From the sequence record PQ511147.1: a stretch of 44,039 nt of DNA. One strand, given 5' to 3'. Each line of letters opens with the position of its first letter. Position 1 is the stretch's first letter. The stretch is from Escherichia phage NHEP3. Position numbers and translations under genes: made by a program. The notes under the pieces were generated by a model. The model was not told the DNA's origin and did not search any database. It saw nothing but the letters and a program-made list of their open reading frames with translations. Of the stretch, positions 2,977 to 4,119 are shown piece after piece.

Positions 2977-4119
2977 ATGCACCCGCAAACTAAAATCACA
3001 GACGAGCAATTGATTGCTGAATTACAATCCGGCGCTACATCGAAAGAGATCTCCAAGAAGTACGGTTTGTCCCTCCGAAACGTCTACATGCGGAAAGCCC
3101 GCCTGTCGAAAAAAGGCATTGGACACGGCAACGATGCCGTAATCCGCAAGCGCGTCGCCGATGGCTTCGGTGTTAAGCGCGTATCGGCCCTGGTACGCGG
3201 CAATGGCGAAGAGGTCATGTCGTGGGTTATCACTGAGCAGGACAAGGAGCGCCAACTCGAAGCCATGCGCGCTGTTGTCGAGGGTATGAACAGCGAGATC
3301 ACACCGGCAGCGCCAGTAAAAGCCCCGCCAGTACCGATCCAGGCGCTCGACTTGCTCAACCTGTACACCGTGTCAGACTTCCACCTGGGCATGTTGGCGT
3401 GGGGGGAGGAGACTGGCGAAGACTGGGATATGGCGATCGCCGAAGACCTGTTCTACCGCTGGTTTGTCGAAGCCTTCGCACGCGCCCCGGACGCAGGCAC
3501 TGCCGTAATTAATATCCTCGGTGATATGGCGCACTTTGATAGCCTCGATGCGGTCACTCCGGCAAGTGGCCACGTACTGGACGCCGACACCCGCTACCAG
3601 AAACTGGTCCGATACATGATTCGCATGGTGCGCAACGTCGTCGAACTGGCGCTGCAAAAACACCACAAAGTCAAACTGCTAATCGTCCAGGGAAATCATG
3701 ACGAGTCGGGTATGATTTGGCTGGCTGAGATGTTCAATACTCTGTACGAGAACGAGCCGCGCGTCGATGTGGATACGTCCCCGGACGTCTACAAAATGGT
3801 GCAGCACGGCAAGACCACGCTATTCTTCCACCACGGGCACAAAGCGCGCTTTGACGCTATCGAAACCGTCATGATTTCTAAATTCAGACAGGCTTTCGGG
3901 TCCAGTGAGTACAGCTACGCGCACGTAGGCCACTTGCACCACCAGAAGATTGTAGAATCCCGCAACATGATTGTTGAACAGCACCGGACGCTCGCAGCGA
4001 AAGACGCCTACGCCAGCCGTGGCGGATGGATGTCAGGTCGTAGTGCCAACGTCATTACCTACAGCGCCAACTACGGCGAAGTTGCACGCTTAACCATTAG
4101 CCCGGAAATGTTGAAATGA
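2977..4119 (+). CDS. calcineurin-like metallophosphoesterase with an N-terminal helix-turn-helix region
   Basis: Phosphoesterase motifs DFHLG, GDMAHFD, QGNHDE, GHLHH; N-terminal EISKKYGLSLRNVYMRKARL looks like an HTH; AGGAAG Shine-Dalgarno before the ATG at 2977. Confidence 0.65.
   Translation: MHPQTKITDEQLIAELQSGATSKEISKKYGLSLRNVYMRKARLSKKGIGHGNDAVIRKRVADGFGVKRVSALVRGNGEEVMSWVITEQDKERQLEAMRAVVEGMNSEITPAAPVKAPPVPIQALDLLNLYTVSDFHLGMLAWGEETGEDWDMAIAEDLFYRWFVEAFARAPDAGTAVINILGDMAHFDSLDAVTPASGHVLDADTRYQKLVRYMIRMVRNVVELALQKHHKVKLLIVQGNHDESGMIWLAEMFNTLYENEPRVDVDTSPDVYKMVQHGKTTLFFHHGHKARFDAIETVMISKFRQAFGSSEYSYAHVGHLHHQKIVESRNMIVEQHRTLAAKDAYASRGGWMSGRSANVITYSANYGEVARLTISPEMLK

Follow-up and report, generated by a model that had tools for sequence, protein, structure and literature searches.

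A helix-turn-helix metallophosphoesterase of the Dhillonvirus-type phage NHEP3 as a candidate DNA nuclease of the T1 gp16 family

Introduction

The siphophages T1 and TLS break down the genome of their host and reuse its nucleotides, and the gene products responsible could not be identified (PMC11447400). Among the closest described systems, phage T5 A1 has been implicated in degrading the host genome and consists of an N-terminal DNA-binding domain and a C-terminal endonuclease domain (PMC12916289). The metallophosphoesterase (MPE) gp48 of the Cluster A mycobacteriophage A10ZJ24 has phosphodiesterase activity, damages host genomic DNA and acts in counter-defence (PMC12287305). Here, we examined a gene at positions 2977 to 4119 of the Escherichia phage NHEP3 genome (PQ511147.1), which encodes a 380-amino-acid (aa) protein with a helix-turn-helix (HTH) region followed by a calcineurin-like MPE domain. 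The stretch analyzed, of 44,039 nucleotides (nt), is referred to as the window and represents a complete, circularly permuted Dhillonvirus-type coliphage genome. A reading of the sequence alone (the original prediction) had proposed a nucleic-acid-directed phosphoesterase, possibly with an anti-defence role or a role at the packaging site.

We give a probability of roughly 0.55 to the reading of this protein as a stand-alone, HTH-tethered DNA nuclease of the Mre11/SbcD/PolD-DP1 branch, belonging to the T1 gp16 family (PHROG 704). As a sequence feature, the gene changes little, being already in GenBank across about 2000 phage records, more than 150 near-identical Dhillonvirus genomes among them, and its two-domain description is part of public annotation (for example, "winged helix-turn-helix domain-containing protein" and "metallophosphoesterase" at NCBI). 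What is added here is the nuclease-type MPE assignment, the constant presence of the HTH and of a family-specific connector, and the T5 A1-like layout. Literature searches, including one for "phrog_704", found no experimental work on the T1 gp16/PHROG 704 family.

Catalytic site and domain architecture

The coding sequence, its domains and its motifs are listed below.

2966-2971, + strand: Shine-Dalgarno-like AGGAAG, 5 nt before the ATG, read from the sequence
2977-4119, + strand: coding sequence of the 380-aa HTH-metallophosphoesterase (T1 gp16 family, PHROG 704), ATG at 2977 and TGA at 4117-4119
2998-3120, + strand: three-helix HTH domain of DNA-binding type, aa 8-48, of LuxR/GerE, sigma-70 region 4 or resolvase type
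3166-3294, + strand: family-specific connector, aa 64-106, a long beta-hairpin (VKxxS...WV) and then a helix
3352-4116, + strand: calcineurin-like MPE domain, aa 126-380, closest folds PolD DP1, SbcD and Mre11
3373-3390, + strand: motif I, SDFHLG, D134 and H136 invariant
3520-3540, + strand: motif II, GDMAHFD, D183 invariant and H186 in 50/53
3691-3705, + strand: motif III, GNHDE, N240 and H241 invariant
3829-3840, + strand: motif IV, HHGH, aa 285-288, H286 invariant
3928-3942, + strand: motif V, GHLHH, H319 in 50/53 and H321 invariant

The PHROG 704 profile ("DNA repair exonuclease") matched aa 5-380 over profile positions 2-390 of 390 (E = 1.6e-160), and phage T1 gp16 matched the same profile with an E value of 7.2e-155. 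T1 gp16 (ST16, 40822-41955), itself annotated as "DNA repair exonuclease", thus belongs to the same family and has the same full-length architecture. Homologues were sampled as representatives of 50%-identity clusters (4675 matches at E ≤ 1e-3, 1133 at E ≤ 1e-30), and conservation was counted in an alignment of 53 sequences with 32 to 81% identity. The start at ATG 2977 agreed with the N-termini of the homologues.

The four MPE motifs quoted in the original prediction were all present, and a fifth, HHGH, which was missing from its list, completes the superfamily set (DxH, GD, GNH[D/E], H, GHxH). Ten residues were invariant in the 53 homologues: D134, H136, G182, D183, N240, H241, H286, G287, G318 and H321. 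The metal-binding residues, on which the original prediction had staked its case, were therefore kept on alignment; six of the seven ligand positions (D134, H136, D183, N240, H286, H319 and H321) were invariant, and H319 was found in 50 of 53 sequences. The 380-aa protein contains a complete dinuclear-metal site of seven ligands together with the catalytic H241, and the invariance of the catalytic residues indicates that enzyme activity is under selection. The Pfam models scored below their gathering cut-offs (Metallophos PF00149, 20.1 versus 21.5 bits; Metallophos_2 PF12850, 22.1 versus 27), and PF00149 reached E ≤ 0.01 in only 16 of the 53 homologues. These scores are explained by the divergence of the T1 gp16-type family, which is too great for those models.

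An AlphaFold2 model built on the 53-sequence alignment (mean pLDDT, 92.2) showed the beta-sandwich MPE fold and, at the N-terminus, three helices (aa 9-17, 22-29 and 33-44) followed by a linker of lower confidence. This three-helix unit superposed on known DNA-binding domains of the LuxR/GerE, sigma-70 region 4 and resolvase types, which bears out the HTH-like stretch described in the original prediction. The connector was modeled as a hairpin with strands 64-73 and 79-88, in which W83 is invariant, and a helix at 90-106; it had no structural match in the PDB. All 53 homologues have 123 to 163 residues before motif I and keep both the HTH and the connector, indicating that this N-terminal extension is a constant part of the T1 gp16-type family. 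The HTH was 86% identical to that of the closest homologue, versus 98 to 100% for the remainder of the protein, and it is the fastest-diverging and least conserved part. Altogether, the protein is almost certainly an MPE-fold phosphoesterase carrying an HTH.

Structural relatives of the MPE domain

The fold neighbours of the model, with their scores, were as follows.

PolD DP1 proofreading exonuclease, 15.6
S. aureus SbcD, 15.0
T. maritima Mre11, 15.0
LpxH, 13.9
MJ0936, 13.5
Other Mre11/SbcD chains, 12.4-13.5
Vps29, 12.4-12.9
YfcE, 12.8
Rv0805 (cyclic-nucleotide phosphodiesterase), 11.8
PP1 and PP5, 8.6-9.4

When the family profile was compared with the PDB, the sole MPE found was T. maritima Mre11/SbcD, at an E value of 0.46, which is not significant. 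This alignment was in register at motif I (tDyHLG / SDWHLG), motif II (GDflH / GDLLH), motif III and motif V. The GDMAHFD of the 380-aa protein aligns with GDLLH of the T. maritima enzyme, so that a nuclease-type MPE core is combined with a motif II of the GDxxH form that Mre11/SbcD shares. The sorting among MPE families that the original prediction had left to profile comparison thus came out in part: structure favors Mre11/SbcD/DP1 over Rv0805 and PP1, whereas the profile match alone does not reach significance. The 380-aa protein is most likely a nuclease-type (Mre11/SbcD/DP1-like) MPE rather than a protein phosphatase or a cyclic-nucleotide phosphodiesterase.

The protein differs from its structural neighbours in several respects. 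Sequence identity to Mre11/SbcD and PolD DP1 was 13 to 17%. The C-terminal capping domain of Mre11/SbcD is missing, because the chain stops 58 aa past motif V, and neither the OB-fold N-terminal region nor the DP2 partner that mark PolD DP1 was found. Conversely, the HTH and the hairpin/helix module are present in the 380-aa protein and not in Mre11/SbcD or PolD DP1. No SbcD/Mre11 match was obtained in NCBIfam, a scan that gave nothing usable. Neither a Rad50/SbcC nor a DP2 partner appears in the annotation of the near-identical Bas14 genome; this statement is limited to annotation, since the open reading frames (ORFs) of the window were not each scanned with hidden Markov models. The Dhillonvirus gene set, as seen in Bas14, includes Pol I, two helicases, SSB, a PD-(D/E)XK nuclease and methyltransferases. 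Beside the homologues in eight further phages, no Rad50/SbcC-type gene is annotated. The protein presumably works like Mre11/SbcD, yet stands outside that family. A PDB search by sequence gave only repeat-protein matches, which were rejected as spurious. The BFVD viral fold search returned family members and metagenomic phage proteins but no characterized protein; the metagenomic matches were unnamed or labeled "DNA polymerase II small subunit."

Comparison with T5 A1 and mycobacteriophage MPEs

T5 A1 (phrog_1745; 1706-3376 on the - strand of the T5 stretch examined) carries all five MPE motifs in its C-terminal half (GDIH, HDVHD, SNHD, HGH and GHTH), and GDxH, HD, NHD, HGH and GHTH were invariant among 30 aligned homologues. 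T5 A1 itself had no Pfam match, and several of its homologues had Pfam HTH domains at the N-terminus. The layout, an N-terminal HTH region and a C-terminal MPE-motif domain, is therefore that of the 380-aa protein, and NHDxxxSxWL and a ...TY near the C-terminus are common to both. In contrast, T5 A1 is longer (556 versus 380 aa), falls in a different PHROG and is encoded by a pre-early gene, whereas the MPE gene here lies beside late genes. The comparison with the T1 gp16 family gave 2 bits in hmmsearch and a probability of 17.7% in full-length hhalign; with the catalytic domain only, hhalign gave 45.7%, with motifs III to V and the C-terminal strand in register and motifs I and II out of it. 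Because the PHROG differs and the profile similarity is not significant, membership of T5 A1 in the T1 gp16 family was rejected, and we regard it as an architectural analogue and a remote relative at most.

The Cluster A mycobacteriophage proteins A10ZJ24 gp48 and Bxb1 gp47 are smaller (about 255 aa), lack the N-terminal HTH and have motif I at residue 10. With an hhalign probability of 7% for Bxb1 gp47 against the T1 gp16 family, they were rejected as specific relatives and are related at the superfamily level only. In the Bxb1 RefSeq record (7876-8788 of the Bxb1 stretch examined), "recombination directionality factor" stands on gp46 and metallo-phosphoesterase on gp47. The published Bxb1 recombination directionality factor is gp47, the MPE itself, and the RefSeq labels may be off by one gene.

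Family distribution and genomic context

The 1143-nt gene matched 154 phage records at 80 to 96% nucleotide identity, and the protein shared 99.5% identity with a protein of phage Bas14 TheodorHerzl. Relatives were detected by tblastn in 2062 of 50,697 phage records, whose hosts include Escherichia, Klebsiella, Salmonella, Vibrio, Campylobacter and Rhodobacter. Between Dhillonvirus and Salmonella Guernseyvirinae, the catalytic domain was 87 to 88% identical, the HTH 52 to 60%, and the connector region (aa 51-125) a mosaic of 40 to 72%. This pattern suggests recombination and lateral gene exchange, with a faster-evolving DNA-binding end.

In the window, the gene is bounded by the following elements.

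2891-2912, + strand: terminator-like hairpin of 8 pairs with a T-run, ending the lysis cassette together with a 55-aa ORF that precedes the MPE gene
4116-4328, + strand: 70-aa ORF, phrog_20931, function not assigned, its ATG overlapping the MPE stop codon (ATGA)
4336-4356, + strand: terminator-like hairpin of 9 pairs with a T-run, ending the unit of MPE gene and small ORF before the terminase small subunit gene
4446-4997: terminase small subunit gene, 327 nt downstream of the MPE gene

The upstream cassette has the order holin-holin-endolysin, and the hairpin at 2891-2912 sets the MPE gene apart from it. In T1, as here, the gene is a short terminator-bounded unit near the lysis cassette; it lies before the lysis genes in T1 and after them here, and the two HTH sequences have diverged. 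In Drexlerviridae (T1, JLBYU41, BMac and Motto), the MPE gene ends a block of helicase, VRR-NUC/resolvase, Dam and small-ORF genes and stands right before the holin gene, often flanked by terminators. An HNH gene and a small ORF intervene before the holin gene in T1, and genes for polynucleotide kinase (PNK) and an NTP hydrolase in BMac. In RcPescado, Vibrio K187 and Yersinia phage 39, the gene adjoins lysis genes. In Cornellvirus Shemara and Jerseyvirus wast, it forms an opposite-strand island within structural (head or tail) genes. Genes for HNH or putative endonucleases recur as neighbours (T1, K187 and wast). A PNK gene directly follows the MPE gene in Webervirus BMac (6160-7226 of the BMac stretch examined) and in Yersinia phage vB_YenM_39 (5220-6278), and the next gene is labeled dNMP kinase in phage 39 and nucleoside triphosphate hydrolase in BMac.

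Some side observations concern these contexts and labels. The run of MPE, PNK and kinase/hydrolase genes in BMac and phage 39 resembles a small nucleotide and end-processing cluster. The placement in Shemara and wast is a moron-like arrangement; the Shemara gene (region 4986-6170 of the Shemara stretch examined) has its own terminator, and the wast gene lies between a superinfection-immunity gene and an endonuclease gene (region 3747-6729 of the wast stretch). Family members are labeled inconsistently, as "DNA polymerase small subunit" (Henu5_1), "oxidoreductase" (SS5), "sigma-70 region 4 domain-containing protein" (BMac and PWKp19), "DNA repair exonuclease" or "calcineurin-like phosphoesterase."

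Proposed function and alternatives

Within the reading as an HTH-tethered nuclease, DNA is probably the substrate of the MPE domain. The HTH, on its flexible linker, would anchor the enzyme to duplex DNA, where the MPE domain would hydrolyze DNA phosphodiester bonds in an Mn2+- or Mg2+-dependent manner, acting as a 3'-5' exonuclease and/or a single-strand endonuclease in the way of Mre11. The nucleic-acid-directed phosphoesterase of the original prediction is partly supported in this respect by the Mre11/SbcD/DP1-type fold and the HTH, while its suggestions of a cyclic-nucleotide target and a packaging-site role found no support.

As for the biological role, the likeliest candidate is breakdown of host DNA during infection, which would supply nucleotides and shut the host down; this is the weakest step of the proposed mechanism. 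Such a role in host-DNA degradation or nucleotide salvage is a tentative suggestion drawn from the T1/TLS phenotype with no assigned nuclease, the analogy with T5 A1, and the PNK and dNMP kinase neighbours. More speculative still is the proposal that the T1 gp16/PHROG 704 MPE is the nuclease by which T1-like, Dhillonvirus and Jersey-like siphophages degrade the host chromosome and come to reuse its nucleotides, which would make it a compact counterpart of T5 A1. Because the host-DNA-degrading nuclease of T1-like phages is unassigned (PMC11447400), this abundant family is a reasonable first candidate. If the proposal held, HTH-tethered MPE nucleases would recur among phages as a means of destroying host DNA. 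Loss of the gene would then abolish the breakdown of host DNA, make generalized transduction more frequent (the classical T1 "gene 2.5" phenotype) and take away the triggers of defences that sense DNA-degradation products. The "gene 2.5" host-DNA-degradation locus could not be placed on the T1 sequence. The candidate matters for the transduction risk of therapeutic siphophages and for defences sensing host-DNA breakdown products.

The main rival to host-DNA breakdown is replication or recombination processing, in which an Mre11- or DP1-like phage nuclease would trim ends, hairpins or flaps of intermediates or concatemers. This rival is possible but doubtful. It draws on the same structural neighbours (Mre11/SbcD/DP1) and on the Drexlerviridae arrangement, where the gene ends the block of helicase, Holliday-junction resolvase and Dam genes. 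Bxb1 gp47, too, is reportedly needed for phage DNA replication. On the other hand, no Rad50/SbcC partner is annotated, and the isolated, horizontally exchanged island within Guernseyvirinae structural genes is more typical of accessory genes. A reannotation of TLS places gp66, an apparent homologue that probably belongs to the T1 gp16 family, with the replication and recombination functions as a "proof-reading exonuclease"; T1, however, encodes no polymerase that such an enzyme could proofread (PMC11447400).

End-healing together with PNK is improbable. In this case the enzyme would be a 3'-phosphatase or 2',3'-cyclic phosphodiesterase repairing the tRNA or DNA ends that nucleases of host defence systems leave behind, comparable to the MPE module of bacterial Pnkp. 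The downstream PNK gene of BMac and phage 39 recurs in Klebsiella MEW1, and T1 also encodes a PNK, but the latter lies 35 kb from the MPE gene, and no adjacent PNK was found in Dhillonvirus, Guernseyvirinae, RcPescado or Vibrio phages. Furthermore, there is no linked ligase gene, the HTH suggests duplex DNA rather than tRNA, and lambda-phosphatase-like MPEs, the clade to which the Pnkp phosphatase presumably belongs, were poor structural matches.

Two further alternatives are very improbable. The first, raised in the original prediction, is an anti-defence phosphodiesterase that destroys the cyclic (oligo)nucleotide signals of CBASS, Pycsar, Thoeris or type III CRISPR systems. Against it, nuclease-type MPEs match the structure better, and the class III cyclic-nucleotide phosphodiesterases (Rv0805/CpdA/Icc) are not the closest MPE relatives. 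Motif II is Mre11-like, and a DNA-binding-type HTH with its connector is kept in all 53 homologues. Moreover, PADLOC models matched with 0 families at E ≤ 1, and literature searches yielded no MPE-type anti-signalling enzyme. The second is an HTH transcription factor with a regulatory or sensor MPE, or an autoregulated enzyme whose HTH controls its own operon only. The resemblance of the HTH to LuxR/NarL and sigma-70 region 4 domains and the position of the gene in its own terminator-bounded unit would fit such a factor, but its catalytic residues are invariant, its HTH is the least conserved part, and no repeated operator-like element was identified, though no systematic search was made.

A packaging nuclease acting with terminase at the pac/cos site, as the original prediction had suggested from gene order, is highly improbable. 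The 327-nt distance to the terminase small subunit gene is the point in its favor; however, adjacency to terminase was seen only in Dhillonvirus among the phages compared and is not kept in Drexlerviridae, Guernseyvirinae, Casjensviridae, or Vibrio and Yersinia phages. In addition, a terminator-like hairpin separates the MPE and terminase units, and packaging nuclease activity already resides in the terminase large subunit. Finally, a Ser/Thr/Tyr protein phosphatase like lambda PPase (NinI) is hardly tenable. The superfamily fold and dinuclear metal centre are shared with NinI and the PPP phosphatases, and lambda encodes such an enzyme, but the PPP family is marked by GDxVDRG and GNHE signatures and a close fold match, a combination that the 380-aa protein does not show, GDxVDRG being absent.

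Neighbouring ORFs and further observations

Lysates of phage EE09, a close relative, yielded peptides of the 380-aa protein (PMC10673088), which shows that it is expressed. The ATGA overlap between the MPE stop codon and the start of the phrog_20931 ORF suggests translational coupling, and the 70-aa product is probably helical. This ORF occurred in 74 Dhillonvirus-type phage records versus 154 for the MPE gene and is absent from Bas14, where 130 nt lie between the MPE gene and terminase. It is therefore regarded as an optional companion, and the idea of an obligate partner or inhibitor of the MPE was rejected. Its identification with the KpAvs2 trigger Ksap1 (PMC11564622) was also rejected, as the Ksap1 residue positions L47, T50, K30, L39 and F60 did not fit the 70-aa ORF.

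Several literature leads proved unrelated. The Dhillonvirus anti-Tmn protein is a different, small protein, ORF35 (PMC11846954). The Metis and PUA-Cal-HAD papers deal with bacterial calcineurin-like effectors and T-even denA and not with the T1 gp16 family. These phages are not covered by the phage Tn-seq preprint.

Among the neighbouring annotations, the 55-aa ORF (phrog_11068; 2717-2884, + strand) that follows the endolysin gene and precedes the terminator-like hairpin at 2891-2912 is labeled "major tail protein" in GenBank record PQ178821, which is implausible at 55 aa. In the BMA1 record, both terminase subunits carry the label "small."
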